A stretch of 59,408 nt of DNA, taken from the NCBI GenBank assembly GCA_031398745.1, contig JANNNX010000078.1:1-59408 (forward strand), given 5' to 3'. The position numbers and the translations under genes were made by a program. Positions 19,690 through 52,064 of the stretch are shown here, in pieces. Within the stretch, counting starts at the first letter, position 1. Every line of letters begins with the position of its first letter. The notes under the pieces are model-generated. The model saw only the letters and a list, made by a program, of their open reading frames with translations, did no database searches and had not been told where the DNA came from. The stretch is from Actinomycetes bacterium. GTDB lineage: Bacteria > Actinomycetota > Acidimicrobiia > Acidimicrobiales > CADCSY01.

Positions 19690-19931
19690 ACTCCCTTGCG
19701 CGGGCCGCCGCGCCTCGCGAGCACCTGAACCACCCCGAGGGCTCGTAACGACGGTCGCCGGCCTCCTCGACCGGCTAGGGCGACTCCCGGACGCGCCGGG
19801 CGACCACGTCACCGTCGGTGACTGGCACTTCACCATCACGCGCCTCGACGGCCACGCCCTCACCGAGGTCCGTATCAGCCGGTCGGACCCTCGGGACCTT
19901 CGGCCGTACGAACGCACGTCCTCATCGACCT
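19690..19931 (+). pseudogene. Remnant of a CorC_HlyC (transporter-associated) domain gene
   Basis: An open frame with no ATG translates as ...PRGLVTTVAGLLDRLGRLPDAPGDHVTVGDWHFTITRLDGHALTEVRISR... This is the characteristic C-terminal CorC/HlyC motif with no upstream CBS/DUF21 part. Confidence 0.4.
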
Positions 19932-19944
19932 GAACTGGAGACCC

Positions 19945-21078
19945 ATGCACTCCGTCTTGACCGCACCCGTCCTCGTCGCTGCAGGCGACACGGCTGAGAA
20001 CTTCGCCAGCTTCGACGTCCCCCCGTGGGCGTGGGCGGCGCTCGTCACCGCCATCATCGTGATGCTCGTGGTGGACCTGCTGCTCGTGCACCGCACCGCG
20101 CATGTCATCAGCATCAAGGAAGCAACCATCGAGTCCGCCATCTGGATCTCGATCGGTCTCGCCTTCGGCGTCGTACTCCTCGTCTGGCAGGGAGGTCAGG
20201 CCGGAAGCGAGTACTACGCAGGATTCCTGATCGAGAAGAGCCTGTCGATCGACAACGTGTTCGTCTGGGCCGTCATCTTCTCGTTCTTCGCCGTCCCCCG
20301 CGAGTACCAGTTCCGGGTCCTCTTCTGGGGCATCTTCGGGGCGCTCGTCCTGCGCGGCGTGTTCATCTTCGCCGGCGTGTCGCTCATCGAACGCTTCGAA
20401 TGGATCCTGTACATCTTCGGCGCCTTCCTTCTCTACACGGCCTGGAAGATCGCCCACCACGACGAATCCGAACAGGTTGACTACAACGCCAACATCGCCA
20501 TGCGCCTCGTACGGCGAGTCTTTCCCACCACCGACCGGTACGACGGACAGAAGCTGTTCACCAAGCAGAACGGCAAGCGGTTCGCCACACCCCTGTTCGC
20601 CGTGCTCGTCCTCATCGAAGCGACCGACGTGGTGTTCGCCGTCGACTCCGTGCCCGCCATCCTCGCGGTCAGCCGCGAACCGTTCATCGTCTTCGCTGCC
20701 AACGCCTTCGCCATCCTCGGCCTGCGCTCCCTCTACTTCCTGCTCGGCGGCATGCAAGGCAAGTTCCGCTACCTCAACGTCGGACTCGGCGTCATCCTCA
20801 CCTTCGTCGGCATCAAGATGCTCCTCATCGGCGAGCCCTTCGAGGTCCACCTGCCGACCTACGTCTCGCTCAGTGTCATCGCCGCCGTGATCGCCATCTC
20901 GGTCATCGCATCCCTGCGCGCCGACGCTCAAGACCGGCGAAACGGCGTGGACGTCCCGGCCGGGCCTCCGGTACACGACACCGTCGGCGCCGAAGAGCCC
21001 GGAGGAATGGATCCGTCCCGTGACGAAGGCCCCGGCCACGACGAGCCCAGTGCCGACAGAGAGGTCCACCGGCGATGA
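19945..21078 (+). CDS. terC: TerC-family integral membrane protein
   Basis: 377 aa with conserved TerC motifs (LIEKSLSIDNVFVWAVIF, DSVPAILAV). Confidence 0.85.
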   Translation: MHSVLTAPVLVAAGDTAENFASFDVPPWAWAALVTAIIVMLVVDLLLVHRTAHVISIKEATIESAIWISIGLAFGVVLLVWQGGQAGSEYYAGFLIEKSLSIDNVFVWAVIFSFFAVPREYQFRVLFWGIFGALVLRGVFIFAGVSLIERFEWILYIFGAFLLYTAWKIAHHDESEQVDYNANIAMRLVRRVFPTTDRYDGQKLFTKQNGKRFATPLFAVLVLIEATDVVFAVDSVPAILAVSREPFIVFAANAFAILGLRSLYFLLGGMQGKFRYLNVGLGVILTFVGIKMLLIGEPFEVHLPTYVSLSVIAAVIAISVIASLRADAQDRRNGVDVPAGPPVHDTVGAEEPGGMDPSRDEGPGHDEPSADREVHRR

Positions 21079-37943: not shown

Positions 37944-38636
37944 ATGCCGGGCCCCGTCGAGATCGTCCCCTCCGTGTTGCCGGCCGACTTCTCGCGCCTG
38001 GGCGACGAGGTGGTGGCCCTGGCCGACGCCGGGGTCGACCGCATCCAGTGGGATGTGATGGACGGCCGGTTCGTGCCCAACCTGACCTTCGGCCCCGACG
38101 TCGTCGCCTCGGTCCGCGACCTGGTCGCGGTGCCCTTCGAGGCCCACCTCATGATCGAGGAGCCCGACCTGCTGGCCCCCCGCTTCGTCGAGGCCGGTTG
38201 CCAGTGGCTCATCGTCCACGCCGAATCGACCCGTCACCTGCACCGCAGCCTCGACCTGGTCCGCTCGCTCGGCGCACGAGCGGCGGTGGCCCTGAACCCG
38301 GCGACGCCGGCGGTGGTGGTCGAGCCCGTGCTCGACCTGGTCGACATGGTGCTGGTGATGACCGTGAACCCGGGCTTCGGGGGCCAGGCCTACCTGGGCT
38401 CCATGGAGGCCAAGGTGCGCGAGGTGGCCACCCTGGTGGCGGCGTCGGGCCGCTCGATCGACATCGAGGTCGACGGCGGCATCGCCCCGGGCACGGTGGG
38501 CGGGGCCGCCGCCGCCGGGGCCAACGTGCTGGTGGCCGGCACCGCCCTCTACCGCGACCCCGAGGGGCTGGCCCACGCGGTCGCCGATCTCCGCCACCGG
38601 GCCGAGGGGGCGTCCGCCGCTCACGCCGAGGTCTGA
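37944..38636 (+). CDS. rpe: Ribulose-phosphate 3-epimerase
   Basis: PSVLPADFSRLGDEV...DVMDGRFVPNLTFG...HLMIE...VMTVNPGFGGQ are canonical Rpe motifs. Confidence 0.9.
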   Translation: MPGPVEIVPSVLPADFSRLGDEVVALADAGVDRIQWDVMDGRFVPNLTFGPDVVASVRDLVAVPFEAHLMIEEPDLLAPRFVEAGCQWLIVHAESTRHLHRSLDLVRSLGARAAVALNPATPAVVVEPVLDLVDMVLVMTVNPGFGGQAYLGSMEAKVREVATLVAASGRSIDIEVDGGIAPGTVGGAAAAGANVLVAGTALYRDPEGLAHAVADLRHRAEGASAAHAEV

Positions 38637-41600
38637 GCCGCCTCGGCCACCTCCACCAGCCGGCACAGGGCGTTGACCAGGGGCACCTGCCTGGCCGACG
38701 AGCACCGGGTGGCCAGCAGGGCCGGGCTGGCCACCACCACGGCCAGGGCCTGGGCCCGGGACACGGCCACGTTCAGGCGGTGGCGGTCGAGGAGGAACGA
38801 GGGGCCCCGGGGGGCGTCGGCCGCCGAGGAGGCGGCCAGCGAGCAGACCACGACCGGGGCCTCCTGGCCCTGGAAACGGTCGACGGTGCCCACCCGGGCC
38901 CCGGCCGGCAGGGCCTCGGTGAGCCGGTTGACCTGGGCGTTGTAGGGAGCCACGACCAGGACGTCGTCGAGGGTGAGGAATCGCTCCTGGCCGTGGCGGT
39001 CGACGAAGGTGGCACCCAGCAGGTCGGCCACCAGGTCGACCACCACCGCCACCTCCTCGTCGCTGCGGGTGCGGTTGCCGACGTGGTCGACCGGCACCCA
39101 GCGCACCCCCGTGCCGTTCAGCGTGCCCGACGCCTCCAGGTCGATACCGGCGCAGGCGTCGACCGAGCGCAGGCGGCCGTCGTAGGCCAGTTCGGACACG
39201 AACGAACACACGTCGGGGTGCATCCGGTAGGAGCGGTCGAGGAAGACGCCGAGGTCGGACCGCAACGTGGCCTGGTCGCCCAATAGGTGGCTGAGGGCCG
39301 AGGCGTCGCTGCCCAGCGGGTGGGTGCCCTTGCCCGGCTGGCGCAACTGCTGGGGGTCGCCCAAGAGGACGAGGTTGTGGGCCGCGGCCCCGGCGGCGAC
39401 GGCGTTGGCGAGCGGGAGCTGGCCGGCCTCGTCGATCACCAGGGTGTGGAGGGCACCGACCAGCGCCGGGCGGCTGAAGAGCCAGGTGGTCCCGGTGACG
39501 ATGTCGACCCTCGGGCCGGCGGCGGCCCCGGCATCCTCGGCCAACGCCGCCTCGACGACGTCGTTGGTGGCCAGCTCGACGAAGCGGTGCTCGACCTGGT
39601 CGGCCTCGTCGGCCTTCTGGAGGCAGCGCAGCGGTCGACCCCCGTCGTCGTCGGCCCGGTGGCACACCGCCTCCAGCAGGTTGGCGATGGCCTTGTGGCT
39701 GGGCCCGCTGATGCCCACGGTGTGGCCGGCCCGCACCAGGGCCACGATCAGCTCGGCGCCGGTATGGGTCTTGCCCGCCCCTGGCGGGCCCTGGACCGCC
39801 AGGCAGCCGTCGTCGAGGGCGAGGGCGAGGGCGACGGCCCTCGACGCCGGGTCGGCCTCGGGGTCGGTGGCCGGGTGCCCCCGGCCCGCGGCCGACGGCA
39901 CGAGCCGGGGCGGCCGGGCCAGGAGCAGGTCGCGCACCGCCCGGAACGGGCCGGGCTGGTCGATGCCGTGCTCCGCCACCCACTCCGCCACCCTCCCGAC
40001 CGACCGAGGCAGCTCGCCGGGGCTGATCGGAGGCCTGGGCACCACCGAGCGGGGGGCGTCGACCCGACCCTGGCGCTTCAGGTCGAGCACGCCCCCGACA
40101 CTGTCGATGGCGTGGACGGTCCCGATAGTCGCCTCGGTGGCTGGGTCGACCAACGTGTCGCCCACCCGCACCTTGTGCTCCTGGGCCGGGTCGAAGTGGT
40201 AGCGATGGATCTGCGACTGCTTCACCTGGCCGACCACGCCCTCGTATGCCAGCTCGCCGATGGCCTCGCTGTCGTCGACCAGCTGGGCGTCGGTGCGGGT
40301 CAGGCGGTCGAAGTGGGCCCACCACTCGGGCTTCTGCTCGCGGCGGTGGAAGCCGACCAGCTGGGCCAGCAGCCAGGTGGCGTGCTGGGCGGCGTCGTGG
40401 GTGGCGGGGTCGGCGGGCAGGCCGGTGCCGAGCCGGGCCGCCAACTCGGCCTCGAAGGCGTCGGCCTCGGTGACGGCCGCCGACGGGGTGCCGTCGACCG
40501 GTCCGGGCCGACCCAGCTCGGTGCCGGCCATGGCCGCCACCTCCACCCGCCGCGCCTCGAGCCAGTTCCGCAGGCCGAGCGTCGAACGGCAGTCGACGGC
40601 GTTGTAGGCCTCGATGTCGTCGAGGAGCTGCTGGTTGCCGGTTTCGAGCCACTCCTCGTAGACGACGATGCTCGACCCGCCGTCGCTCACCGTGCCGTCG
40701 CGGCCGTCGAGGTAGAAGGCCTCGAGCTTCTTGAGGCCGTAGCCCTCGAGCGAGGTCCGAAGGCCGTGGCGGACGACGGCGTAGAGGTCGACGAAGGTGC
40801 GACTGCGGAGCAGCACGTCGAGCTCGGCCTGGCGGGACGCGTAACGCCCGGCCAGGCGCTTGCACGCGGTGAGCTCGTAGGGGGCGTAGTGGTACACGTG
40901 GAGGTCGGGCCAGCGGCGACGCCGCTCGACCAGCAGGTCGATCACCGCCTCGAAGGCGGTCCGCTCGGCCACCGGGTCGTGGCCCCAGTAGGCGTGGTAG
41001 GTGGGTTCGCCGGTGTCGACGGTGACCAGGCCCCAGAGGTACTCCAGCCCGCCCTCGACGGCCCATGGGTCGCCCTCCAGGTCGAGGAAGACGTCGCCCG
41101 GCGAGGGCGCCGGCAGCCCGGCCAGGCCCAGACCCGGTCGGGGGGGAGGGAGGAGGGCGTAGCGGTCGGTTCCGTCGGCCGCGGCCCGGCGCTGGAGGCG
41201 GGCCTGGTGGCGGAGGCGGGCCAGGAAGGCGTCGCCGACCCGGGACACACGCTCGCCGTCGCCGGTCGTGGCGGCCAGGGCGGCGGCGGTGTCGATGCCG
41301 GCGGCGGCCAGATGGGCGGCGGTCGGGCCGCGCATGCCGGCCACCAGCGAGAGGTGGTCGTCGGCCCGGCGGCGCGCCTCGCAGGCCGGCGCCCACGGAC
41401 AGACCGCGCAGTGCGAGACGGGGTCGGGGTAGGTGTCGTCGGCCGGGGGCCGGTCGAGCACCGCCTCGAAGCGGTGGCGGACCGACCGGTGGTAGGCGGC
41501 GAGCTCGGCGGTGGGGTGGCGAGAGCGCTCGCCGTCGCCGGTGACCACCTCGACGTGGGTGGGGGCGACGCCCTGGATGCGCTCGACCTGCTCGGCGTAG

Positions 41601-42067
41601 GCGGTCAGCTGGAGCAGGGCCGCGGGCTTGGCCCGCCGGGCCAGCTTGGTGTCGGCCACGTCGTAGCGCCAGGGGCCGAGGGTGGAGGGCTCGTCGACCC
41701 GGAGCAGGAAGTCGGCATGGGCCCGCACCCGACCGTCGAAGAACGAGGCCTGGAAGATCACGTCCACCCCGGCGGCCATGGCCGCCACCGTCTCGGCCTC
41801 GGCGGCGGCCAGGGCGGTCGGCGAGGCGTCGAGGGGGCGAGCGATCTCCACCACCGAGTGGCCCTCGGCCCGGAGACGCTCGAGCTCGCGCCGCTCGTGC
41901 TCATCACCCCGGCGGCGCAGGACGGCCAGCTCGGGGTCGTCTTCGGGTGGGGGCTCGAGAAGACCCAGGGCCACCTGCCGATCGAGGGCGCTGCGGTGAC
42001 GGCACTCGACGAAGGCCACCAGGTCGCTGGGCGAGGTGATCAGGCGGTCGTCGGCAGTCCGGTACAT
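38621..42067 (-). CDS. Fusion of a TM0106-family RecB-like (PD-(D/E)xK) nuclease and an SF1B Upf1/DNA2-like helicase
   Basis: N-terminus has FQASFFDG...DFLL...YDVADTKLARRAKPAALLQLTAYAEQ and a C-terminal Cys cluster (CAVCPWAPAC). The C-terminal helicase carries Walker A GPPGAGKTHT, VIDEAGQ and FQGQEAPVVV motifs. 1148 aa. Confidence 0.8.
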   Translation of the reverse strand: MYRTADDRLITSPSDLVAFVECRHRSALDRQVALGLLEPPPEDDPELAVLRRRGDEHERRELERLRAEGHSVVEIARPLDASPTALAAAEAETVAAMAAGVDVIFQASFFDGRVRAHADFLLRVDEPSTLGPWRYDVADTKLARRAKPAALLQLTAYAEQVERIQGVAPTHVEVVTGDGERSRHPTAELAAYHRSVRHRFEAVLDRPPADDTYPDPVSHCAVCPWAPACEARRRADDHLSLVAGMRGPTAAHLAAAGIDTAAALAATTGDGERVSRVGDAFLARLRHQARLQRRAAADGTDRYALLPPPRPGLGLAGLPAPSPGDVFLDLEGDPWAVEGGLEYLWGLVTVDTGEPTYHAYWGHDPVAERTAFEAVIDLLVERRRRWPDLHVYHYAPYELTACKRLAGRYASRQAELDVLLRSRTFVDLYAVVRHGLRTSLEGYGLKKLEAFYLDGRDGTVSDGGSSIVVYEEWLETGNQQLLDDIEAYNAVDCRSTLGLRNWLEARRVEVAAMAGTELGRPGPVDGTPSAAVTEADAFEAELAARLGTGLPADPATHDAAQHATWLLAQLVGFHRREQKPEWWAHFDRLTRTDAQLVDDSEAIGELAYEGVVGQVKQSQIHRYHFDPAQEHKVRVGDTLVDPATEATIGTVHAIDSVGGVLDLKRQGRVDAPRSVVPRPPISPGELPRSVGRVAEWVAEHGIDQPGPFRAVRDLLLARPPRLVPSAAGRGHPATDPEADPASRAVALALALDDGCLAVQGPPGAGKTHTGAELIVALVRAGHTVGISGPSHKAIANLLEAVCHRADDDGGRPLRCLQKADEADQVEHRFVELATNDVVEAALAEDAGAAAGPRVDIVTGTTWLFSRPALVGALHTLVIDEAGQLPLANAVAAGAAAHNLVLLGDPQQLRQPGKGTHPLGSDASALSHLLGDQATLRSDLGVFLDRSYRMHPDVCSFVSELAYDGRLRSVDACAGIDLEASGTLNGTGVRWVPVDHVGNRTRSDEEVAVVVDLVADLLGATFVDRHGQERFLTLDDVLVVAPYNAQVNRLTEALPAGARVGTVDRFQGQEAPVVVCSLAASSAADAPRGPSFLLDRHRLNVAVSRAQALAVVVASPALLATRCSSARQVPLVNALCRLVEVAEAAQTSA

Positions 42068-42239: not shown

Positions 42240-42660
42240 GGCATCACTCGTCACTCCGTTCGCACCGCCGTCGCTGGGAACGGACCGACCGTGGCCAGTC
42301 GATGGTCCCGGTGTCGGACGAAGCCGCCGTCGCGGGTGACGTCGAACTCGACCACCTCGACGGCAGCCGACTCGCCAACTGCCCGGAGGGCACCGAGATC
42401 GATCCCGAAGCGACGACCATCCTGAGCGTCGTCACGTCGGAACACGGCGAGGTTCCTCTCGGTCGGAAAGCCATCCCCCAAGACGAGCCCCGTCTCGGTC
42501 CACAGCCCTTCGCTCTCCACCCCCTCGAACCAGCCGTCACTGCGCACTGCGGCCAGGGCCACCTGGATCAGACCCGCCGTCGGCTGCCCCCACCCCGCCG
42601 GCATCACATCCTCCGGGCGATTCGCCACCCGCACGACATCGCACTTGATCGCAGCCACCC
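42240..42660. repeat. Direct repeat copy A (about 420 bp, about 95% identical to 45703..46123)
   Basis: Near-identical DNA covers the 3' halves of both imm-like genes plus about 10 nt downstream (cactcgtcactccgttcgcaccgccgtcgctgggaacggaccgac...). The 5' halves are much more diverged. Confidence 0.75.
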
Positions 42661-42919
42661 AGGCCACATATCCATCGGCCTTGGTCACGATCGCCCCCGT
42701 CTGATCGACCACTAGCTCAGTAAGCCCGCTCAGCGTGGGGGTGCCGACGCTTCGCAAAACACCAAGGTTCAAAGAGAACGCTCGGTGGGCCTCCGCCAAC
42801 CCGAATACTGGCGCCACATCGTCTTTCCCAAACGAGATGTAACCCAGTTCGGGACGCTCCGTGAGGAACATCATCGAAGGCGAGGCATCGAACCACCCAT
42901 CGCCCACGTCTTGGATCAT
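42251..42919 (-). CDS. Putative immunity-like protein, paralog 2 (family unrecognised)
   Basis: About 85% aa identity to the gene at 45712..46395, and the C-terminal about 100 aa are nearly identical. The start is placed at MIQDVGDGWFD. The 290-aa track ORF over-extends. Confidence 0.55.
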   Translation of the reverse strand: MIQDVGDGWFDASPSMMFLTERPELGYISFGKDDVAPVFGLAEAHRAFSLNLGVLRSVGTPTLSGLTELVVDQTGAIVTKADGYVAWVAAIKCDVVRVANRPEDVMPAGWGQPTAGLIQVALAAVRSDGWFEGVESEGLWTETGLVLGDGFPTERNLAVFRRDDAQDGRRFGIDLGALRAVGESAAVEVVEFDVTRDGGFVRHRDHRLATVGPFPATAVRTE

Positions 42920-43227
42920 GATTTCCAACACTAGAACCTCACAGTCGAGGGCTGACAGCGCGAGAAGAGCAAGCTGTAGCGGCTGGCGCCGGCGAGCACC
43001 TGATGGATTCGCCGACGTTGCTTCACTTGACAAGAAGCACGACGAACCAGACGAGCATCCCGGCCATGCCCATCCCCACGAGCCATTGCGCCGTGCGGCT
43101 CGGGTGCCGCTGCGGGCCGCCACCTGCGAGCCAAAGGGCCAAGCCCACGGTGGTCAACGCGAGTGGGAAGGTTGGGGACGCCGCTCCCATCCTGTCGATC
43201 CATTCGACACTCGGCTTCCTCGGTGCG

Positions 43228-44394
43228 TCAGTTCGGCGGGTCGCTCTCTTCGGGGAACACCCGGGCCAGGCTGGGGACCATGCGCCGGACCGTCTGGCAC
43301 CACTTCTTCGTCCGCCTCGCAAGGAGGAGATCGCCGAGCGCCTCCCGGGCCCGGGTCCGGGCCCGGGCATTGAGCAGCGCCCCCAAAGAGATCTCGTAGG
43401 ACGACACGTCGGGCCACCACTCCTGCACCTCGCCCACCGTCAGCTCGGCTCCACCCGACGCCAGTGGCACTGCACCCTCCGGCCACCGGCCGCCGAGTAC
43501 CTCGAAGTGCCCCGGTCCGAGGCGCTGCCAGAAGAAGCCATCCAAGGCCTGGAACCACATCATCGGCCCGTGCTGGTGATAAGGCGATCGTCCGTCCGGG
43601 TTCATCGGTTTGTTGTGCCAGGCGGAGCACTTCGGCTGGGTGGCCACCACCGCATACGCCACCTCCCCGAGCTCCCGGCCGAGCTCGACCAACCGCTCGA
43701 CGTGCTCGACGAAGTTGGTCTCCGTCAGCCCGGGCCCGGCCACCATCGCCGTGAAACATGCCCATTCCGGCTCGGCGTTCACCGCCACGCCTCGCAACAG
43801 CTCATCCAGCTCGCCAGCGACAAAGTCAGCCGACGACCCCGCCGCCACCACCGACGAGGCCCGACGTCCCGCGGTGGCGAGATCAACCTGGCCGGCGTAC
43901 ACCTCAGCCAATCTGCAACGCACCAAGCCCTCGGCCTGCGACTCCAGCCACTCCACCCCCGCCGCCAACCAACCATCGACGATCGATGCCCGATCGGGCG
44001 AATCCGGATGCGGATACACGGCCAACACCACCGTCGGTCCCGTGATGAACAGCAACGAGAAGAACTCGGTGGTCGGTGGCACCGACACCACCGCATCGCT
44101 CACCCCCACCTCGACCAGATAGCCGACCAACACCTCGGCCATCTCCGCCCGCTGACCCCCCGACAGGTCCTCCGCCCCGAACAGGCCGACCACCCCCATC
44201 GGCAGCACCGTCGGACCCACCAACCTGTCGAACAACGGTTCGGTGAACCCGCCCTCGACATGGACGAAGTGGTGGAACAACCGATCGAAGGCCACCGCCA
44301 CCTGCTCGAGGGTCGCCGCCCCGCTCACGCACAGCACGACGTCCTCCTGCGCCCGAAGTGCGCTCGTCGTCCCCCGACCCACCACCACCGGCAT
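43228..44394 (-). CDS. Uncharacterised 388-aa protein (paralog of 44454..45629)
   Basis: Shares blocks with its neighbour (LGEVAYAVVATQP / GGRWPEGA / EWWPD). No signal peptide or recognisable domain. Confidence 0.5.
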   Translation of the reverse strand: MPVVVGRGTTSALRAQEDVVLCVSGAATLEQVAVAFDRLFHHFVHVEGGFTEPLFDRLVGPTVLPMGVVGLFGAEDLSGGQRAEMAEVLVGYLVEVGVSDAVVSVPPTTEFFSLLFITGPTVVLAVYPHPDSPDRASIVDGWLAAGVEWLESQAEGLVRCRLAEVYAGQVDLATAGRRASSVVAAGSSADFVAGELDELLRGVAVNAEPEWACFTAMVAGPGLTETNFVEHVERLVELGRELGEVAYAVVATQPKCSAWHNKPMNPDGRSPYHQHGPMMWFQALDGFFWQRLGPGHFEVLGGRWPEGAVPLASGGAELTVGEVQEWWPDVSSYEISLGALLNARARTRAREALGDLLLARRTKKWCQTVRRMVPSLARVFPEESDPPN

Positions 44395-44453: not shown

Positions 44454-45629
44454 TCACGACGGGTCATCGAGACCCAAGATGCGCTGGCGGCGCTCGAATC
44501 GCCGCCGTGAGATATCCGAGCGCCGATCGGTGTAGGGATAGGCCAGCAACCGTGCCAGCAGCGCACGAGCCCGGGCCCGCACCGCGGCGTTGGACGTCGC
44601 CTGGCCGGATTGGTAGGTCGCCATGTTCCCGGTCATCCACTCCGCCATCTGGGCCGGCGAGTACCCCTGAAGCCAGATCTGGTCCGGCCACCACTCCTCG
44701 GGCTCACCCACCCGCACCTCGGCCCGACCCGGACCGACCACCTCAGCACCCTCGGGCCACACGCCGCCCAACTCCTCGAGGTGTCTCGCCGACAGCAACT
44801 GCCACCAATGGGCATCTGGCACCACCTGGTTGCACATTCCCATCGTGCTGTTGGTTGCCTTCGCAGCCAGCTCGTCGGCATCACCGGGCTCCAAGTAGAT
44901 GGCGGCGTGCCAGTCGGGCTCGGTCACGACCACTGCGTAGGAGACCTCCCCCAAGGAGCGTGCCAGGTCGACCAACGACTCCGCGTGCGCCACCGCCGTC
45001 GTGGGGGTGAGCGACATGCCTCCCAGAGCGACACTCAACACCGGCTCATGTGATGATCCCACGCCGACAACACCGACCTGCTCAGGCATGCGGCCGGCGA
45101 CCACCTGAGCGCTCATGCCCTGCGCGTGCGTGCCCTCCAACACCATCCGTACGTCAGCCAGCGGCAAGGTCGACTCCACCCCCGACCCGATCGTGATCTC
45201 GGCATCGCCCCCGACGAAGGGCTGCGCCTCCAGGAAGTCGCAGGCCGCCTCGAGCCAACCCGGCGGCACACGACCGACGTCGGTCAACCACAACCCAACG
45301 GGCACGGCCGGCGCGACCAACAACGCCACCGACATACCCCACTGCCGATACCGATACGGGTCCCGCTCCGCCGGACACACCACCACCGCATCGGACGCTC
45401 CCTGCTCGTCCAACAACGCCACCAGCCGGTCCGGCAACTCCCCCCACGCTCGACGACCTAGCGAATGCGCATCGATGATCACGAACGGGCCCTCCGGGGA
45501 TCGAACCGGCCCGATCACCAGGTTCACCGACTCCTCCAGATCGGCCTCCAGATCCGCCAGCAGCTCTCCGGCCAACACCGATAAGGCCCGAACGGCGGCC
45601 TCGACATCGACCGCGCCCTGCACCACCAA
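44454..45629 (-). CDS. Uncharacterised 391-aa protein (paralog of 43228..44394)
   Basis: About 35-40% identity to its neighbour (LGEVSYAVVVTEP / GGVWPEGA / EWWPD). Confidence 0.5.
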   Translation of the reverse strand: MVVQGAVDVEAAVRALSVLAGELLADLEADLEESVNLVIGPVRSPEGPFVIIDAHSLGRRAWGELPDRLVALLDEQGASDAVVVCPAERDPYRYRQWGMSVALLVAPAVPVGLWLTDVGRVPPGWLEAACDFLEAQPFVGGDAEITIGSGVESTLPLADVRMVLEGTHAQGMSAQVVAGRMPEQVGVVGVGSSHEPVLSVALGGMSLTPTTAVAHAESLVDLARSLGEVSYAVVVTEPDWHAAIYLEPGDADELAAKATNSTMGMCNQVVPDAHWWQLLSARHLEELGGVWPEGAEVVGPGRAEVRVGEPEEWWPDQIWLQGYSPAQMAEWMTGNMATYQSGQATSNAAVRARARALLARLLAYPYTDRRSDISRRRFERRQRILGLDDPS

Positions 45630-45702: not shown

Positions 45703-46123
45703 CAACACTCGTCACTCCGTTCGCACCGCCGTCGCTGGGAACGGACCGACAGTGGCCAGTCGATGGTCCCGGTGTCGGACGAAGCCGCCGTCGCGGGTGA
45801 CGTCGAACTCGACCACTTCCACGGCAGCCGACTCGCCCACCGCCCGGAGGGCACCGAGATCGATCCCGAAGCGACGACCGTCCTGAGCACCATCTCGCCG
45901 GAACACGGCGAGGTCCCGCTTGGTCGGAAAGCCATCCCCCAAGACGAGCCCCGTCTCGGTCCACAGCCCTTCGCCTTCCACCCCCTCGAACCAGCCGTCA
46001 CTGCGCACTGCAGCCAGGGCCACCTGGATCAGACCCGCCGTCGGCTGCCCCCACCCCGCCGGCATCGCATCCTCCGGACGATTCGCCACCCGCACGACTT
46101 CGCACTTGATCGCAGCCACCCAG
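45703..46123. repeat. Direct repeat copy B (partner of 42240..42660)
   Basis: See copy A. Confidence 0.75.
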
Positions 46124-46395
46124 GACGCGGACCCATCAGCCCCGGTGACGATCGCTCCCGCCTGATCTACCACCAGGTCGGTCACGCCGCTCAGCGTGGG
46201 GGTGCCGACGCTTCGCAACGAGCCAAGCCTCAACGAATAGGCCGCGCGCCCACCCTCCAACGCGAATACGGGGCGACCGGGACTGCCCTCTCCAAACGAG
46301 ACGTAACCCAGTTCAGGGCGCTCCGTGAGGAACATCATTGATGGCGAGGCGTCGAACCACCCATCGCCCACGTCGCGCAGAATTACCTCAAGCAT
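45712..46395 (-). CDS. Putative cognate immunity protein of the RHS toxin (paralog 1)
   Basis: 227-aa ORF starting 10 nt after the RHS stop on the same strand. It is duplicated at 42251..42919. Confidence 0.55.
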   Translation of the reverse strand: MLEVILRDVGDGWFDASPSMMFLTERPELGYVSFGEGSPGRPVFALEGGRAAYSLRLGSLRSVGTPTLSGVTDLVVDQAGAIVTGADGSASWVAAIKCEVVRVANRPEDAMPAGWGQPTAGLIQVALAAVRSDGWFEGVEGEGLWTETGLVLGDGFPTKRDLAVFRRDGAQDGRRFGIDLGALRAVGESAAVEVVEFDVTRDGGFVRHRDHRLATVGPFPATAVRTE

Positions 46396-46405
46396 ATCTC
46401 GTTCC

Positions 46406-49400
46406 TTATATTGGCGGATTCATCCGCTGTGTAGAGCACGCAGTTACACTCGAGTTCTTGCAGCCACTAGGGATAAAGATTTCAGGAAGCCCACCGCTGG
46501 TATCTTTGAATCCTGGGTAGATCTTGGTCTCAAGAGGGACCGCTGGCAGAACTTTGCCAATCGTTCGAACGTCGACGAGCAGACCGGTCGTAAGGCGATC
46601 ACCTGCGTTTTTCGGAGGATCAGGCAGCCCGGCGTAGAATCGAAAGGAACGATATCCAAACTGTCTGTCCCATGCGATCGGGTCAACGAAGGTCCAAGAC
46701 CTACCGTCACGCTGTGCCTCTCCACCGTGTGCTCGATAGATAACGAGCCCATAGTTGCCATCGCTGTCCTCGCCTGCCACACACCATGAACGGTATCGAC
46801 GGCACTCCGTCTGCAGCGCCTCCAGCTTGTCTTGGTCCTCTCGGCGATTGTCCTCTTCGGCACGGCAAGCGAAGACGCAAAGTTTAGGTAGATCGGGCAG
46901 GTCGGGCAGATCGGGCAGTCGGCCAGGAAGGTCAGGGAGATTTGGCAGGTTCGGTAGGTCAACCCCGATGGTCGCTGCCAGATACGCCAGTGCCGCCACC
47001 CCCACGGCGACAACGACAACGGCGCCGATGACCGCGCCGACTACCGCACCGCCCGCTGCGACCGCCCCACCAAGGGCAGCTGCCGCAGGGGGGACACCGA
47101 CGAATGCAGGGCTGAACACTCCGTCGCTCATCGAGTACATGCCGGTGGGGTCTGCGCGGTCGATCGGGTCGTTATCGGCGTAGTGGTAGCGGTAGGCCAC
47201 CGTGGGTGTGCCCGACACCCCACCGAGAGGGTCGGTGGTGGTGAACGCGGCCGTGGTCGGCTGGTAGTCACGGGCCCGCAGGTGGATCAGGTCGTCGACC
47301 ACCACCTCCCCCCGGTAGCCCAACTGCGGGGCGTAGGTCGAGGTCCCCGAGGCCTTGCCCCACATGTCATAGGACGTGGCCCGGGCCACCGACGCCGTGG
47401 CTGAGGTCGACAGGACCGACCCGTACACGTCGGTCGCCAGCGCCGAGGTGGTCGAGCCCTTACGCATGGCTACCCACCCCATGGTTCCCCCGACTAGATC
47501 GGTGATGGCCGACCCCGTGGTCATGCCGGTGAGCTGGGCCACACCGCCGGCGGTGTCCCAATCCAAGGTCGTCGAGGTCACCGAGGCCCCGGTGCTGGCC
47601 ACGCCCACCAGGTTGCCAGCCGGATCGTAGCTGCGGGTCTCGGTGGTCGAGCCCGACGACGACACCTCCGTCAGCGACGACAACCGGCCGGCCTCGTCAT
47701 ACACGTAGCTGGTGGCGTTCGACCCGGCCGACTCCGACACCCGTCGACCGGCCTCGTCATAGGCGTAGCTCGTCGTCACCGATCCCGCGGTCGAGGACGT
47801 GAGCTGCCCGGCCGCGTCATAGGCCCAGGTGGCGGTCACCGAGTTGCCCTTCTTCTCCTGCACCCGCCGCCCGAGCGCGTCGTAGCTCCAGCGCTGGGCG
47901 CTGCCCGACGACGGCTGGCGCACGGTGATCTGGCCCGCCAGGTCGTGGGTGTAGGTGGTGGTGGCCCCGGCGGTGGTCTCGGTGGCCACCCGCCCCGCGC
48001 TGTCGTAGCCCAGGGTGGTGGAGCGGTTGGCGCCGGCCAGCACCTGGTCGAAGCCGGTCACCCGCCCGCCGGTGTACGTCCACGTCCGGCTGCCGCCGAC
48101 CACCGCCTCACCGGTGACCCGACCGTCGGCGTCATAGGTGTATGTCGCCAACGCCGCCGTCGGCGAGGTCAGGTTGCTGAACGACACGTCGTCCACGGCG
48201 ACCTGGTGCGCCCCGCCGCTGACCCGTACGTAGGAGACCTTGGTGGCGCCAGGGTCGACCACCGCGGTGTCGGTCACCTCCGTCGACCACGCCACCGGCT
48301 CTCCGGCGGCTACGTCCCACGACTTGACTCGCACCGTGGTGCCCTCGACCCGAAAGCGCAGGCCCCGCTCACTCAGGCCCGTGGCGACGGTGAAGGTGCC
48401 GATCTGGGTGGTCGTCGTGCCGACCTTCCGATAGAGCGAGCCGGTGCTGGAGCTGTTGGCCACCTCGACCCAGTAAGAACCAGTCGACGATGACCGGCCG
48501 TACACCCGGAACTTTGCCGACGACGATGCGTCCTCGAACCGGTAGGTCAGTGCCACCTCCGAATCGGTGGTGGTCGTGCCCTTGGCGCTGATCGTCGCCG
48601 TGCTCGACCCAGTTGACCCGGTGGACAAGATGGCCTCGTTGTCCTCGATCGTCACCGAGGCCCCGGTGCCAGCGCTCACACCCCACTTGTTCGTGTCGGG
48701 GGCGGAGCCGTCGCTGCCGGTGAAGGCGTCGGCCATGGTCTCGGCCGCCGTGATGGTCGAGAGCCGCCCGGCAGCGTCGTACTGGTAGCGCTCGATCGAG
48801 CCGTCGGGGCTGCGCATCGAGGTCCGGCGACCGGCGACGTCGTAGGTGTAGCTGGTGGTCCGTCCCCCGGGGGTCACCTGCTGCGTCTGGGCCCCGCCAG
48901 CGTCGTAGGCGTAGGTGGTCGTGCCCGAGGCATCGGTGATGCTCGTCACCCAACCGGCGGCGTCGTGGGTGTAGTCGACCTGGCTGCCGTCGTCGTAGGT
49001 GCGCGTCGTCAGCTGGCCGGCGGCGTCGAAGGTGTCGGTGGTCGACCGACCCGACGGGTCGACGGTGGTGCTGAGGCGACCGGCGTCGTCGAAGCCCGTC
49101 GTAGTAACCCGTCCCAGCGGGTCGGTGGTCTCGGTCTGCTGGCCGGCCGCGTCATAGCCGTAGCTGGTCACGCCGCCCAGGGCGTCGACCATCGAGGTGC
49201 GCCGACTGCGGCTGTCGTAGCCGTAGGTCGTCAGCTTGCCCAGCGCGTCGGTGGCGGCGGTCTGGCGACCATCGGCGTCGAAGGTGTACGTCGTCGTCCC
49301 CGCGCCGGTCTTGGTCACCGATACGAGCTGGCCCTTGGCGTCGTAGCCGTTGGTGGTGACCACCCCGGCGGAGTCGGTCATCGTGGCCACCCGCCCGGCG

Positions 49401-49798
49401 GAGTCGTAGGTGCTGGCGGTGACCAGGCCCGACGGTGACGTCACCGACAGCTGGTTGCCGTCAGCGTCGTGGACATAGGTCGTCGTGCCCGAAGCCGTGG
49501 TCACCGCCACCAACCGGCCGGCGGTGTCGTAGGCATTGGTCGAGGTGTTCCCGGCCGCATCGGTGGTCGTCGCCACCCGTCCGGCCGGGGTGTAGGTGGT
49601 GGTGGCCACGCCACCGCGGGCGTCGGTCTCGCCGACCACCCGGCCGAGGGCGTCGTAGCTGGTCGACACGACGTGGCCGGCTGGGTCCGTGACCGACGAC
49701 TGGCGTCCGGCGGCGTCATAGGCCGTGGTCGTCGTGCGACCGAGCCCATCGGTGGTGGTGACCTCGCGTCCGGCGGCGTCGTAGCCGGTGGTCGTCAC
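46406..49798 (-). CDS. RHS/YD-repeat polymorphic toxin, C-terminal portion: YD-repeat shell, RHS core end motif and a variable C-terminal toxin domain
   Basis: Dozens of YDxxGR repeats. RHS boundary motif YRYHYADNDPIDRADPTGMYS. Then a Gly/Ala/Val-rich hydrophobic segment, an (LPD/LPN)n linker and a final domain of about 170 aa with lower-GC DNA. It is contiguous with 49716..52064 through a 1-nt frame change. Confidence 0.85.
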   Translation of the reverse strand: MTTTGYDAAGREVTTTDGLGRTTTTAYDAAGRQSSVTDPAGHVVSTSYDALGRVVGETDARGGVATTTYTPAGRVATTTDAAGNTSTNAYDTAGRLVAVTTASGTTTYVHDADGNQLSVTSPSGLVTASTYDSAGRVATMTDSAGVVTTNGYDAKGQLVSVTKTGAGTTTYTFDADGRQTAATDALGKLTTYGYDSRSRRTSMVDALGGVTSYGYDAAGQQTETTDPLGRVTTTGFDDAGRLSTTVDPSGRSTTDTFDAAGQLTTRTYDDGSQVDYTHDAAGWVTSITDASGTTTYAYDAGGAQTQQVTPGGRTTSYTYDVAGRRTSMRSPDGSIERYQYDAAGRLSTITAAETMADAFTGSDGSAPDTNKWGVSAGTGASVTIEDNEAILSTGSTGSSTATISAKGTTTTDSEVALTYRFEDASSSAKFRVYGRSSSTGSYWVEVANSSSTGSLYRKVGTTTTQIGTFTVATGLSERGLRFRVEGTTVRVKSWDVAAGEPVAWSTEVTDTAVVDPGATKVSYVRVSGGAHQVAVDDVSFSNLTSPTAALATYTYDADGRVTGEAVVGGSRTWTYTGGRVTGFDQVLAGANRSTTLGYDSAGRVATETTAGATTTYTHDLAGQITVRQPSSGSAQRWSYDALGRRVQEKKGNSVTATWAYDAAGQLTSSTAGSVTTSYAYDEAGRRVSESAGSNATSYVYDEAGRLSSLTEVSSSGSTTETRSYDPAGNLVGVASTGASVTSTTLDWDTAGGVAQLTGMTTGSAITDLVGGTMGWVAMRKGSTTSALATDVYGSVLSTSATASVARATSYDMWGKASGTSTYAPQLGYRGEVVVDDLIHLRARDYQPTTAAFTTTDPLGGVSGTPTVAYRYHYADNDPIDRADPTGMYSMSDGVFSPAFVGVPPAAAALGGAVAAGGAVVGAVIGAVVVVAVGVAALAYLAATIGVDLPNLPNLPDLPGRLPDLPDLPDLPKLCVFACRAEEDNRREDQDKLEALQTECRRYRSWCVAGEDSDGNYGLVIYRAHGGEAQRDGRSWTFVDPIAWDRQFGYRSFRFYAGLPDPPKNAGDRLTTGLLVDVRTIGKVLPAVPLETKIYPGFKDTSGGLPEIFIPSGCKNSSVTACSTQRMNPPI
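46886..46960. repeat. Imperfect 6/12-nt tandem repeat encoding a DLPNLPNLPDLPGRLPDLPDLPDLPKL linker
   Basis: gatcgggcaggtcgggcagatcgggcagtcggccaggaaggtcagggagatttggcaggttcgg, coding on the minus strand. Confidence 0.7.
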
Positions 49799-52064
49799 CT
49801 CGCCCCAGCGGGTTGGTCACCGACGTCTGGTTGCCGTCGGCGTCGTATGCGTAGGTCGTCTCTCGACCCAGCTCGTCGGTCGAGCGCAGCAAGCGCCCGA
49901 GGACGCCCCAGGTGTTGGTGGTCGTCGTCCCGTCAGGGTTGGTGGTGGTCACCAGCTGACCCCGGGAGTCGTACTCATAGCTGGTCACATGGCCCAAAGG
50001 GGTACTGGTGGAGGCGGTACGGCCGTGGGCGTCGTAGATGTTGGTGGTCACGCCACCCGAGGGGTCGGTCGTGGTCACGAGACGACCGACGGCGTCGTAG
50101 GCGTAGGCGGTGGTCTGGCCCGCGGGGTCAGTCGTGGTCAGCACCCGACCACCCCCGTCGAAGGTCCAGGTGGTGACACGACCGGCTGCCGTCGTCTGCT
50201 GAGTCCGGTTACCGGCGGCGTCGTATTGGTAGGTGGTGGTCCCGGCCGCAGTCGTCGAGCTGGTCATCCGTCGGGATGCGTCGTAGGAGTAGGTCGTGGT
50301 CACGCCGTCGGCATCGGTCGACGAGGTCACCAGCCCGTCGGAGCTGACGTAGCTGGTCGTCTGCCCGACGTGGTCGGTGACCGACGTCGGTACCCGGCTC
50401 GATCCGTCGTACGTGTAGGTCGTCGTCCCCGACGCCGGCGACGACGTCGAGGTGACCCGATCGAGGGCGTCGTAGGTGGCGGTCGAGGTGATGCCAGCCT
50501 CGTCGGTGGCGGTGACCACGTTGCCGTGCGCGTCGTAGGTCTGGGCCACGGCCTGGTCGAGCCGACCCACGGCGGCCACGACGTTGCCCGACGCGTCATA
50601 GGTCCGACTGAGGACACCGCCAACGGGGTCGGTGGCCTGCGTGACCCGAGCATTGACGTCGTGCTGGTAGGTGACGACCTCGCTCGATGCCGACTCGGTC
50701 ACCGTGGTGGTGCCGGTGTCGTCGTCGTACTCGAACGTCGTGGTCGAGGTCCCCGGACCGGCGTGCTGGGCAAGGACCCGCCCCCGGGAGTCGTAGGTGT
50801 TGACGGCGACGACCCTGCCCGTGGCGTCGGTGATCGACGCAATACGTCCTGCGGCATCGAGAGAATATGCGGTGGCTCCGGCGCTGGGCGTGGTCACCGA
50901 CACGAGGCGGTCCGACGAGTCATACGCATAGGTGGCGTTTCGACCGTCCGACGATTCGACATTGGCCAACCTCGCAGAGGCGGTGTAGGTGAACGCCAGA
51001 GATCCACCGGATGAAGAACTGACCTCGGTCACCAGACCGTCGACATCTCTTGCGATGGTGATCGATTCGCCCTCGGCATCACTCTGGGCAACCAGCAAGC
51101 CCTGGTCGTCGTAGGTCCACACCTCGCCGGAATACCAGGTGAGCGTCCAGGTAAGCGTCCAGCTGCTGTCACGGTGCTGGGCCAGCTCGCCGTACTGGTC
51201 ACCCGGGCGAACGAAGACGGTGCCGTCCGTCTCGTAGGTCACCTCTCGGCCATCGGGGAGTACCAGCGCGGCGGAGCCGCCGGTCTGCAACGCCACCGTC
51301 GAGTCGTAGGCGCCCCGCCAGCCGACCCCCATCGCCCCCGAGGTGAGATCGCGCGAGTTGTAGGTGGTCGTCCAGGCCAGGCCGAAGGCATCGGATGCCC
51401 CCGCCAGATCGGTGCTCGACAGCACGAAGTTCCCGGACGCGGTGTCCACCGGGTCCGACGCCGTCATCTGACCCGATCGATAGCCCAGCGTCGAGCGCAC
51501 CGGCACCGTGGTGGCGCAGGTTTCCGTCGGGAGACCCGCGAACGCTCCGGTCGGCGAGGCCACCTCGAGTCGCACGGTGTCGCACGCGTAGTTGTCGGAG
51601 TCGAAGAGTCCGATTCTCGGAGCGTCGTCCCGCAACCCCGACGACAGCTGCGTCGCGTACCGGGACAGACCGGAGAAGCGGACCTCCCGCTCCACGCCCT
51701 CGATGACGACGTGACCGGGAGTGGTGAGCACGTCGATCAGCAAGGACTCGTCGGCGGATCCATATCCCGAGCTGCTCACAAGGAACCCGTCGAGACAGGA
51801 GGCGTCCACGTCGATGCGGAACGCACTGGCTGTACTCGCGTCGGCGAGCACCGCCGTGCACGACGTGGTGCCCGTCGGCGTCACCGAGGCCTCGTAGGAG
51901 AAGTACTGATCGACCTCCCCCGTGGTCAGGTTCAGGCTCACGATGGGATCAGCAGCTGCCGGCACCGTCGCTAGGGGCTGGATCACGGCCAAGGCGGACG
52001 ACAGCGCGGACAGAGAAACCCCGACCCCAACCCCCATGCGATGCATGGATCCGACCATAGACAC
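49716..52064 (-). CDS. RHS/YD-repeat polymorphic toxin, N-terminal portion: Sec signal peptide, N-terminal domain and the start of the YD-repeat shell
   Basis: Signal peptide MHRMGVGVGVSLSALSSALAVIQPLATVPAAA. RHS shell-opening motif DPVDTASGNFVLSSTDLAG. YD repeats (TYDASGNVV, TYDAHGNVV, YAYDADGNQ). After ...SVTNPLGR the frame decays to junk, while the +1 frame continues as TTTGYDAAGR. Confidence 0.85.
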   Translation of the reverse strand: MSMVGSMHRMGVGVGVSLSALSSALAVIQPLATVPAAADPIVSLNLTTGEVDQYFSYEASVTPTGTTSCTAVLADASTASAFRIDVDASCLDGFLVSSSGYGSADESLLIDVLTTPGHVVIEGVEREVRFSGLSRYATQLSSGLRDDAPRIGLFDSDNYACDTVRLEVASPTGAFAGLPTETCATTVPVRSTLGYRSGQMTASDPVDTASGNFVLSSTDLAGASDAFGLAWTTTYNSRDLTSGAMGVGWRGAYDSTVALQTGGSAALVLPDGREVTYETDGTVFVRPGDQYGELAQHRDSSWTLTWTLTWYSGEVWTYDDQGLLVAQSDAEGESITIARDVDGLVTEVSSSSGGSLAFTYTASARLANVESSDGRNATYAYDSSDRLVSVTTPSAGATAYSLDAAGRIASITDATGRVVAVNTYDSRGRVLAQHAGPGTSTTTFEYDDDTGTTTVTESASSEVVTYQHDVNARVTQATDPVGGVLSRTYDASGNVVAAVGRLDQAVAQTYDAHGNVVTATDEAGITSTATYDALDRVTSTSSPASGTTTYTYDGSSRVPTSVTDHVGQTTSYVSSDGLVTSSTDADGVTTTYSYDASRRMTSSTTAAGTTTYQYDAAGNRTQQTTAAGRVTTWTFDGGGRVLTTTDPAGQTTAYAYDAVGRLVTTTDPSGGVTTNIYDAHGRTASTSTPLGHVTSYEYDSRGQLVTTTNPDGTTTTNTWGVLGRLLRSTDELGRETTYAYDADGNQTSVTNPLGRGDDHRLRRRRTRGHHHRWARSHDDHGL

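Follow-up and report, generated by a model that had tools for sequence, protein, structure and literature searches.

Introduction

How polymorphic toxin domains cross the cytoplasmic membrane of a target cell is poorly understood, most of all where no type VI secretion system (T6SS) injects them. An RHS gene that bears on this question lies on the minus strand of a contig from an Actinomycetes bacterium of the order Acidimicrobiales (JANNNX010000078.1, assembly GCA_031398745.1), all 59,408 nucleotides (nt) of which were analysed and are called the window here. Behind the predicted cleavage site of its product follow an uncharged hydrophobic segment with a glycine-zipper motif, an acidic proline-rich linker and a C-terminal domain, the tip. 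We consider it probable, if some way from assured, that these parts are a swapped cassette in which zipper segment, linker and a toxin domain of the ADP-ribosyltransferase (ART) fold have come to sit together on an RHS trunk.

By fold, the nearest described systems are the Tne-type NAD(P)+ glycohydrolases (NADases), comprising Tne1/Tse6, Tne2, Rhs1-CT of Serratia Db10, TNT of M. tuberculosis and AfNADase, of which the Serratia toxin is a proposed additional Tne sub-group, Tne3 or Tne4. The window toxin resembles them in being a C-terminal polymorphic domain of a kind found on RHS proteins, followed by a small gene of presumed immunity function, and in its family's invariant Trp and two invariant Arg, the cleft of Tne-type enzymes likewise containing an Arg and a conserved aromatic residue. 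It differs from them in having no detectable sequence similarity, in carrying Glu where they have a strictly conserved Gln, in belonging to a Sec-type protein outside any PAAR, prePAAR transmembrane domain or Eag chaperone context, in placing its hydrophobic segment on the cleaved C-terminal fragment instead of at the N-terminus, and in its unrelated candidate immunity families. With the R-S-E ARTs, such as the T6SS effector Tre1 and the Tox-ART-RSE group of Zhang et al. 2012, it shares an Arg on strand 1, a Ser-x-Thr on strand 2 and a Glu on strand 5 as well as the polymorphic-toxin context.

For the hydrophobic segment the closest precedents are Tde1 and Tse5. Tde1, a deoxyribonuclease (DNase) effector of the Agrobacterium T6SS, requires its N-terminal glycine zipper for membrane permeabilisation and entry into prey (PMC10240207), and like the window protein it carries, in a single chain, a GxxxG-type zipper on the N-terminal side of an enzyme domain that acts in the cytoplasm. 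In contrast to the window protein, which is known from its sequence alone, Tde1 is a small T6SS cargo effector with an adaptor; the window zipper lies behind an RHS cleavage site, where the shell is predicted to enclose it, far exceeds that of Tde1 in length and hydrophobicity, and has a proline-rich linker between it and the enzyme. In Tse5 of P. aeruginosa, which also combines an RHS shell with a hydrophobic glycine-zipper sequence past the cleavage site, the shell shields this C-terminus in the producer (PMC12744356). The hydrophobic C-terminus of Tse5 is itself the toxin and its immunity protein is membrane-bound, whereas the window protein has an enzyme domain after the zipper and a soluble candidate immunity protein. 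In its general plan the window protein also resembles WapA of Bacillus subtilis, in that a signal peptide heads an RHS protein whose C-terminal toxin is polymorphic and whose gene adjoins a candidate immunity gene, in a host that is likely monoderm, while WapA differs in having tRNase tips and cell-wall-binding repeats rather than a lectin-like trunk insert. We know of no hydrophobic pre-toxin segment in WapA tips.

A compositionally foreign cassette behind the predicted cleavage site

The RHS gene is read from two long open reading frames (ORFs), 49716..52064 and 46406..49798, and it is the second, of 1130 amino acids, that carries the C-terminal region. The trunk part of this ORF ends in an RHS-associated core (TIGR03696, NCBIfam) at residues 810–887, found at E 3.7e-12 and 46.6 bits against a cut-off of 32.5. 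The core terminates in DPTGM and contains the autoproteolysis-type motif DPLGG-x22-DPTGM, whose 22-residue spacing compares with a canonical spacing of the DPxG motifs of 17 residues (PMC13285283); cleavage is predicted from this motif to fall between the Gly and the Met of DPTGM. Beyond it comes a junction, YSMSDGVFSPA (47105..47137, minus strand as are all parts of the gene), and then the hydrophobic Gly/Ala/Val-rich pre-toxin segment FVGVPPAAAALGGAVAAGGAVVGAVIGAVVVVAVGVAALAYLAATIGV, with its core at 46961..47104. The uncharged stretch as a whole spans residues 894–946, amounts to 48–53 residues, and reaches Kyte-Doolittle means over 19 residues of 1.65 to 2.84 in 27 consecutive windows. Its length would accommodate a single long transmembrane helix or a hairpin of two helices. 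A single GxxxGxxxG glycine-zipper motif, GAVVGAVIG, lies within it, and the Gly-zipper models of Pfam found no match there.

The acidic, proline-rich (LP[DN])n linker DLPNLPNLPDLPGRLPDLPDLPDLPKL follows at 46880..46960. The first-pass annotation had ascribed it to a 12-nt tandem repeat, and Tandem Repeats Finder instead gave a period of 9 nt, one LPD unit, in 4.0 copies at 46893..46927 (the last linker units); a weak 12-nt period does occur, at 47014..47051, inside the hydrophobic segment rather than the linker. The tip itself, at 46409..46888, is 160 residues long (about 170 in the first-pass annotation), and its conserved toxin core (46409..46753) is shorter still. The remainder of the tip is a lineage-specific, Cys-rich helical N-terminal extension (CVFAC...C...C, 46754..46879), modelled with helices at tip residues 2–8 and 15–31 at a predicted local distance difference test score (pLDDT) of 52–89. 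This extension is not conserved, family alignments starting at about tip residues 36–46. No Pfam model of the named pre-toxin domains PT-TG, PT-VENN or PT-HINT matched, the scan of the whole protein (E ≤ 1) giving only RHS_repeat. The tip has six cysteines (C4, C8, C29, C36, C143 and C151), and a C-terminal pair (GC....xxC) is kept in a subfamily comprising P0001, P0002, P0003, P0004 and P0011, which suggests, on sequence grounds, a disulfide suited to an extracellular stage.

Base composition sets this entire region apart. At 0.554, the GC content of the C-terminal domain lies below the value of 0.699 found for the window (z = −4.0), a level to which only 0.27% of 480-nt windows descend. No 500-nt window in the 59 kb is lower in GC than the one beginning at 46301. 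The GC profile is therefore not uniform, and the drop in the tip that had been noticed by eye is real, although at about 55%, with a minimum of 52%, it is less deep than the 50% first given. The low-GC tract takes in the whole post-cleavage region and the first 40–55 or so codons of the downstream gene, the remainder of which is at 67%. At third codon positions the GC content (GC3) of the trunk is 0.913; behind it the hydrophobic segment has 0.672, the linker 0.536 and the tip 0.553. The maximum-likelihood change point of GC3, from 0.913 to 0.577, lies at codon 892, about position 47122 and thus within the junction, five codons past the predicted cleavage site; its log-likelihood ratio is 66.4, the maximum in 500 permutations being 8.6. 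Codon log-odds trained on the host point the same way, at +0.45 for the trunk and −0.62 for the tip. The three-part composite recognised in the first-pass annotation is thus real far beyond chance, with a compositional break at the junction of core and C-terminal region. Because the break comes right after the cleavage motif and covers segment, linker and tip alike, it is the whole post-cleavage fragment that is compositionally foreign and not the enzyme alone, and segment, linker and toxin look like one horizontally acquired cassette on a resident trunk.

Amino-acid composition or relaxed selection at a gene end might in principle lower the GC content without any transfer, and Lys, Asn, Ile, Phe and Tyr are indeed more frequent in the tip than in the trunk, where Thr, Gly, Ala and Asp abound. 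The drop, however, is at synonymous positions (GC3 from 0.91 to 0.58) with GC1 and GC2 little changed, it is abrupt and falls at a domain boundary, and the hydrophobic segment, though made of GC-rich codon families, has a lowered GC3 as well (0.67). The change-point analysis effectively refutes this by-product explanation, which we regard as extremely improbable.

A new toxin family with the fold of NAD+-consuming enzymes

Conventional searches say little about the tip. Pfam and NCBIfam scans were empty (Pfam at E ≤ 1), a word-indexed single-sequence protein search found no relatives, and a single-protein search of GTDB genomes found no close relative. An exhaustive phmmer search of 1.8 billion representatives returned 39 matches, the best at E 1.7e-11 and 38% identity, of which 36 are true; P0008, P0019 and P0036 were dropped as repeat-protein artefacts. 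A profile search then added 88 further members, all 'hypothetical' and none with a Pfam domain over the toxin region, and a Pfam scan of the 36 members at E ≤ 10 produced noise only. Over a conserved core of about 115–125 residues the family shares the motifs YR[VI][WYH]GG, G[RA]SWTP[VI][DN]P, [YF]R..AGLP..N.G and GG[LW]PE[YIV].IP, and the window copy retains all the conserved residues. In the numbering of the 1130-residue ORF these are R1022 (the YR of strand 1), S1034-W1035-T1036 (strand 2), R1053, the AGLP, N and GG positions, and E1106 (strand 5); in tip numbering, R52, S64/T66 and E136 are invariant or at least 90% conserved and belong to model strands 46–55, 64–66 and 135–138, with W65, R52 and R83 invariant throughout the family.

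The AlphaFold2 model of the tip (pLDDT 87) has a split beta-sheet core with strands 1–6 in ART order. Compared with known structures, it scores highest with Tne2 (8.4), Serratia marcescens Rhs1-CT (6XTD; 8.0) and Tse6 (6.5), followed by AfNADase and the Fusarium NADase (5.7 each), TNT (4.6) and TreTu (4.5), then by CopC (4.2) and MbcT (4.1), with poly(ADP-ribose) polymerases, diphtheria toxin and RES toxins below. An identification of 6XTD as the ART Tre23 of Photorhabdus was considered and rejected, as the paper describing the structure gives it as the Serratia Rhs1-CT NADase, and this moved the balance toward an NADase. The ART catalytic triad sits on strands 1, 2 and 5 (PMC13285283), and the invariant or near-invariant R, S-W-T and E of the tip lie on those same strands of the model. 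From the model and the conserved residues, the tip is predicted to be an NAD+-consuming toxin domain of the ART superfamily; within that superfamily an NAD(P)+ glycohydrolase seems somewhat likelier than an ADP-ribosyltransferase, at roughly even or slightly better chances.

Several findings speak against so specific an assignment. A Foldseek search of the PDB had no significant match, the best relevant one being 6XTD at E 0.59, and a profile search against every PDB sequence gave no match up to E 10, none of the solved NADases or ARTs being detectably similar in sequence. In TNT-type NADases an aromatic residue and an Arg are shared and a Gln is strictly conserved, whereas at the strand-5 position, equated with that of the Gln from strand order and not by superposition, 35 of the 36 members of the tip family have Glu and only one (P0028) has Gln. 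By sequence the tip does not belong to the TNT-type NADases, having neither a match to Pfam TNT (PF14021) or Ntox46 nor detectable similarity to their solved members. Since Glu replaces Gln and sequence similarity is lacking, the NADase assignment rests on moderate fold similarity, and an ADP-ribosyltransferase would account for the R-S-E-like triad just as well.

The tip may accordingly be a true R-S-E ADP-ribosyltransferase that modifies a specific macromolecule, whether protein, RNA or DNA, in the target cell. Its near-invariant Arg, Ser-x-Thr and Glu occupy the R-S-E triad positions, Glu rather than the Gln of TNT-type NADases stands on strand 5, and ART toxins are already known on RHS proteins in Tre23, TreTu and the R-S-E enzyme Tre1. 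What tells against transfer is the strand-5 motif, the ARTT loop, in which R-S-E transferases carry [QE]-x-E: the family consensus is GG[LW][PT]E, with a single Glu after a hydrophobic residue or Pro (as in GG[LW]PE) and a hydrophobic residue two places before it. In C3 and iota-type toxins NAD+ hydrolysis can do without the first Q/E of [QE]-x-E, while transfer requires it. That P0028 carries Gln at the strand-5 position likewise favours hydrolysis, and a transferase is to us a credible but distinctly less probable alternative to the glycohydrolase. The combination of an NADase-like fold with R-S-E-like residues bears on how NAD+ hydrolases and ADP-ribosyltransferases diverged.

Distribution and probable exchange of the toxin domain

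The toxin family comprises at least 100 proteins, drawn from about ten phyla and attached to trunks of RHS and other types. A degenerate DNA pattern made by hand for WTP[x][DN]P...[YF]R..AGLP and run on GTDB species genomes recovered 28 loci (L numbers; proteins have P numbers), all of them true members (E ≤ 1e-19) except for one extra fragment in L020. These loci come from Actinomycetota (many), Chloroflexota, Planctomycetota, Verrucomicrobiota, Acidobacteriota and Armatimonadota, and further from Bacteroidota, Lentisphaerota, Proteobacteria, Bdellovibrionota and Desulfobacterota. RHS trunks bear the domain in Betaproteobacteria, Acidobacteriota, Chloroflexota, Verrucomicrobiota, Desulfobacterota and Armatimonadota; RHS carriers include L010, L016, L018, L019, L029, L031, L007, P0006, P0011 and P0028. 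Other carriers are PD40-like repeat proteins (L023/P0014), the non-RHS actinobacterial proteins of L008, L009, L024 and L032, a giant protein of 5000 residues, and an orphan cassette in L001 that starts 'MNVDPTGL' and lies beside an Ntox24/Imm53 pair. In the group of P0005 the domain is stand-alone, preceded by N-terminal transmembrane helices.

Conversely, the nearest relatives of the window trunk, 42–51% identical, bear unrelated tips: an alpha/beta hydrolase in P0120, a hydrophobic segment with a GIY-YIG-like domain in P0119 and a Gly-rich domain in P0118. The same toxin domain thus occurs on many trunks and related trunks have other tips, in line with the toxin-tip swapping that the first-pass annotation had proposed, and the domain is not confined to the RHS trunk. 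Together with the non-uniform GC profile, its presence on many trunks makes recombinational exchange of the tip cassette the best reading. Orphan tips, remnants of an RHS core and further toxin-domain copies were looked for in the window and not found. The toxin domain is a new, unnamed family of a known kind of toxin, and the locus itself is a case of ordinary RHS tip swapping.

Two further groups were noticed. Stand-alone proteins of about 250 residues (P0005, at L003 5001–5756, P0017, P0021, P0037 and P0040) have 2–4 N-terminal transmembrane helices and a small overlapping downstream ORF; as they have no delivery trunk, the domain may serve another kind of conflict system too. An actinobacterial subfamily on non-RHS trunks (L008, L009, L012, L015, L022, L024, L025 and L032) carries 15–25 inserted residues between its YR and SWT motifs and is extended at the C-terminus by GGVNEPWTHGPGDW.

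The hydrophobic segment and a possible route of entry

Hydrophobic segments are common at this position. In 99 family members the toxin domain is preceded by 70 or more residues, and 38 of these have a hydrophobic segment within 140 residues ahead of it (threshold, a 19-residue Kyte-Doolittle mean of at least 1.6), often followed by a proline-rich linker placed as in the window, as in P0001, P0003, P0006 and L018; some of the segments are glycine-zipper-like, such as IVVGAVIGAAVGG of P0074. The segments of different proteins are alike in composition and not in sequence. Of 25 control RHS proteins whose tips are unrelated, 8 have such a segment within 110 residues of the cleavage motif. The hydrophobic-plus-linker module is consequently not unusual, contrary to the first-pass annotation, and the idea that it is specific to the toxin family was rejected, its frequency in the RHS control set being the same.

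NAD+ is cytoplasmic, and an enzyme that consumes it must therefore cross the membrane of the target. For a Sec-type RHS protein, which has no injection machine, a translocation device travelling on the cleaved fragment is a reasonable model, and by analogy with Tde1 the hydrophobic segment could be that device, a role to which we give somewhat less than an even chance. The RHS shell would enclose the cleaved C-terminal fragment and keep the hydrophobic segment soluble, and may dock on the target envelope by way of a lectin-like trunk domain. After release, the segment would insert into the target cytoplasmic membrane and help the tethered enzyme into the cytoplasm, where the enzyme would consume NAD(P)+, most likely as a Tne/TNT-type glycohydrolase, or alternatively transfer ADP-ribose to a target; the producer would be protected by the presumed immunity protein of 227 residues encoded 10 nt downstream.

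This course of events has to contend with two features of the module. A frequency of 38% before the toxin domain against 32% after other RHS cores reveals no specific link between the segment and a toxin acting in the cytoplasm, and the linker is strongly acidic, which would not obviously favour entry into a cytoplasm that is negative inside. The segment could alternatively be a packaging or anchoring element only.

A further possibility gives the segment a toxicity of its own, as a pore-former that depolarises membranes in the manner of Tse5-CT, EsxX or TspA, so that the tip would hold two warheads. An uncharged Gly/Ala/Val stretch of 48–53 residues with GxxxGxxxG is what might be expected of such a toxin, depolarising toxins formed by the glycine-zipper C-termini of RHS or LXG proteins are already established (PMC12744356), and two RHS relatives, P0135 and P0161, have tips that are nearly all hydrophobic or glycine-zipper. 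The zipper of Tde1, too, is reported to inhibit growth independently of its DNase (PMC10240207). Yet a single canonical zipper motif is all that the window segment offers, it lacks amphipathic or charged residues that could line a pore, no adjoining gene for a membrane-protein immunity factor was seen, the 227-residue ORF having no hydrophobic segment, and the same architecture recurs with different enzymatic domains, which fits an accessory role better. We hold a pore-forming role to be improbable.

Returning to translocation, the boldest form of that model makes the region a self-sufficient mobile cassette of delivery device and warhead, in which a rigid spacer rich in proline joins a zipper insertion segment to an enzyme that consumes NAD+; this is speculative and rather doubtful. 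Were it true, Sec-secreted RHS toxins, though lacking an injection machine, would bring their own device for crossing the target cytoplasmic membrane, and the enzyme would found a new NAD+-targeting toxin family with a Tne-like fold and Glu for Gln, paired with a dedicated immunity family of about 120 residues and spread over about ten phyla. The succession of cleavage site, hydrophobic zipper, spacer and enzyme is at any rate a simple and testable layout that recurs with different enzymes. The main value of the locus lies in the unnamed toxin and immunity families and in this recurring 'zipper-spacer-enzyme' layout as a handle on toxin entry, and naming the toxin and its partner immunity families would annotate many 'hypothetical proteins' in genomes and metagenomes.

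Candidate immunity proteins

The gene behind the tip encodes 227 residues (45712..46395, minus strand). The TAA of the RHS gene is followed by 10 nt with a Shine-Dalgarno-like AAGGA and then by the ATG of this ORF, an arrangement that gives the appearance of translational coupling, and the protein is listed publicly for the contig with an identical start. Its codon log-odds of 0.02 are the best of the six frames, an ORF on the opposite strand reaching −0.19, and its GC3 of 0.76 is intermediate. No Pfam or NCBIfam match was obtained. On its position the protein is presumed to be the immunity candidate, a presumption that is weakened by the finding of no relatives of the ORF in the fetched loci, in a metagenome scan or by exact look-up, and by the failure of hidden Markov models of two candidate immunity families from related loci to match any ORF of the window. 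Toxin and immunity gene had initially been thought to be swapped together; in view of the intermediate GC3, the missing relatives and the lack of an immunity-family match, the cassette does not clearly include the downstream gene.

Related loci have a more consistent partner. In about 14 of the 28 genomic loci, from many phyla, a conserved ORF of about 120 residues stands a few bases behind the toxin domain or overlaps it, with the motifs F[YF]L[ST]S.D, EPP..GQ.YG, RH.G, WP..V.V and WAELYRT. It has no model in Pfam, the one database checked, and is probably the cognate immunity family of the toxin domain. Three actinobacterial loci, belonging to the subfamily with the insertion between YR and SWT, have instead an ORF of about 240 residues after the toxin domain, with a weak, sub-threshold match to Pfam SseB. 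The family of about 120 residues is found in L029 (3859–4227), L006, L028, L001 (6584–7003), L018, L033 and L011 and further in L021, L026, L027, L019, L023 and L010, and is fused to helicase-associated (HA) domains in L019 and L023.

The trunk and the integrity of the gene

With its frame repaired, the gene as read from its sequence is that of a Sec-type RHS/YD polymorphic toxin of about 1,890 residues. The N-terminal ORF (49716..52064, 782 residues), which ends at a frameshift, has a signal-peptide-like start, MHRMGVGVGVSLSALSSALAVIQPLATVPAAAD, read as a Sec signal by inspection only, then DUF6531 (Pfam, E 2e-16) and YD/RHS repeats, with RHS_repeat matching in 13 stretches (Pfam, E 4e-79). 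In the second ORF, whose trunk part at 47138..49798 runs up to the RHS-associated core and cleavage motif, RHS_repeat matches in 18 stretches (E 2e-91) and the NCBIfam model YD_repeat_2x at E 6e-73; TIGR01643 of NCBIfam matches 19 stretches. Inserted into the trunk at 48089..48751 is a concanavalin-A-like lectin/glucanase beta-sandwich, possibly a carbohydrate- or receptor-binding module. No T6SS or type VII secretion system genes were seen among the scanned ORFs of the window. The gene has the YD/RHS repeats, the RHS-associated core with a DPxG pair and the variable tip on a conserved trunk of the RHS toxin class, but is not, as it stands, an intact, expressible gene.

The break is a 1-nt frameshift at about 49798 (49797..49800, in '...ctg ggg cga g gtg acg acc...'), and deleting one g there rejoins a seamless YD repeat, NPLGR-VTTTGYDAAGR. 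It is either a genuine pseudogenising mutation or an assembly error. Neither RHS product is in the public protein collection, which does hold neighbouring genes of the same 59,408-nt contig, and this suggests that the gene was annotated as a pseudogene. The frameshift and the missing products also weigh on the reading of a swapped, working cassette, because with them the RHS system may be dead. On that account the locus would be a decaying relic, an RHS pseudogene whose tip is never delivered and whose downstream ORF is a leftover or an orphan immunity gene kept against neighbours. The frameshift has no slippery site and the second ORF, translated alone, has no signal peptide; on the other side, there is one lesion in 5.6 kb, the conserved toxin residues and the cleavage motif are all intact, the trunk GC3 is still strongly gene-like, and an assembly error is possible in a repetitive gene. 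Run SRR20217204 yields a matching 2.5-kb contig. A relic is, in our estimate, conceivable but less likely than not. The architecture is typical of the RHS toxin class and not exceptional, and the gene may be inactivated by the frameshift.

Genes around the RHS island

The genes surrounding the RHS island are ordinary chromosomal ones, encoding ribulose-phosphate epimerase, ClpP, phosphate ATP-binding cassette transport, a sigma factor and an SPFH protein. Directly downstream of the candidate immunity gene are two tandem paralogous ORFs of 388 and 391 residues (43228–44394 and 44454–45629, minus strand), which are 32% identical to each other (E 6e-33) and have a GC3 of 0.83–0.86, slightly under that of host genes; they have no Pfam match and no relatives among the fetched loci. 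Past them, a second low-GC patch (0.585–0.61 at 42600–43000), which may be the other edge of the RHS island, overlaps an ORF of 290 residues (42251–43123, minus strand; GC3 0.73) without a Pfam match. Adjoining the island is a protein of 1148 residues (38621–42067, minus strand) that combines a PD-(D/E)XK nuclease, an RNase H-like domain and a superfamily 1 helicase (AAA_11/AAA_12), and could be a helicase-nuclease of repair or defence type. Farther off, the GC content, otherwise 70% along the contig, shows a modest dip to 0.60–0.63 at 19900–20500.

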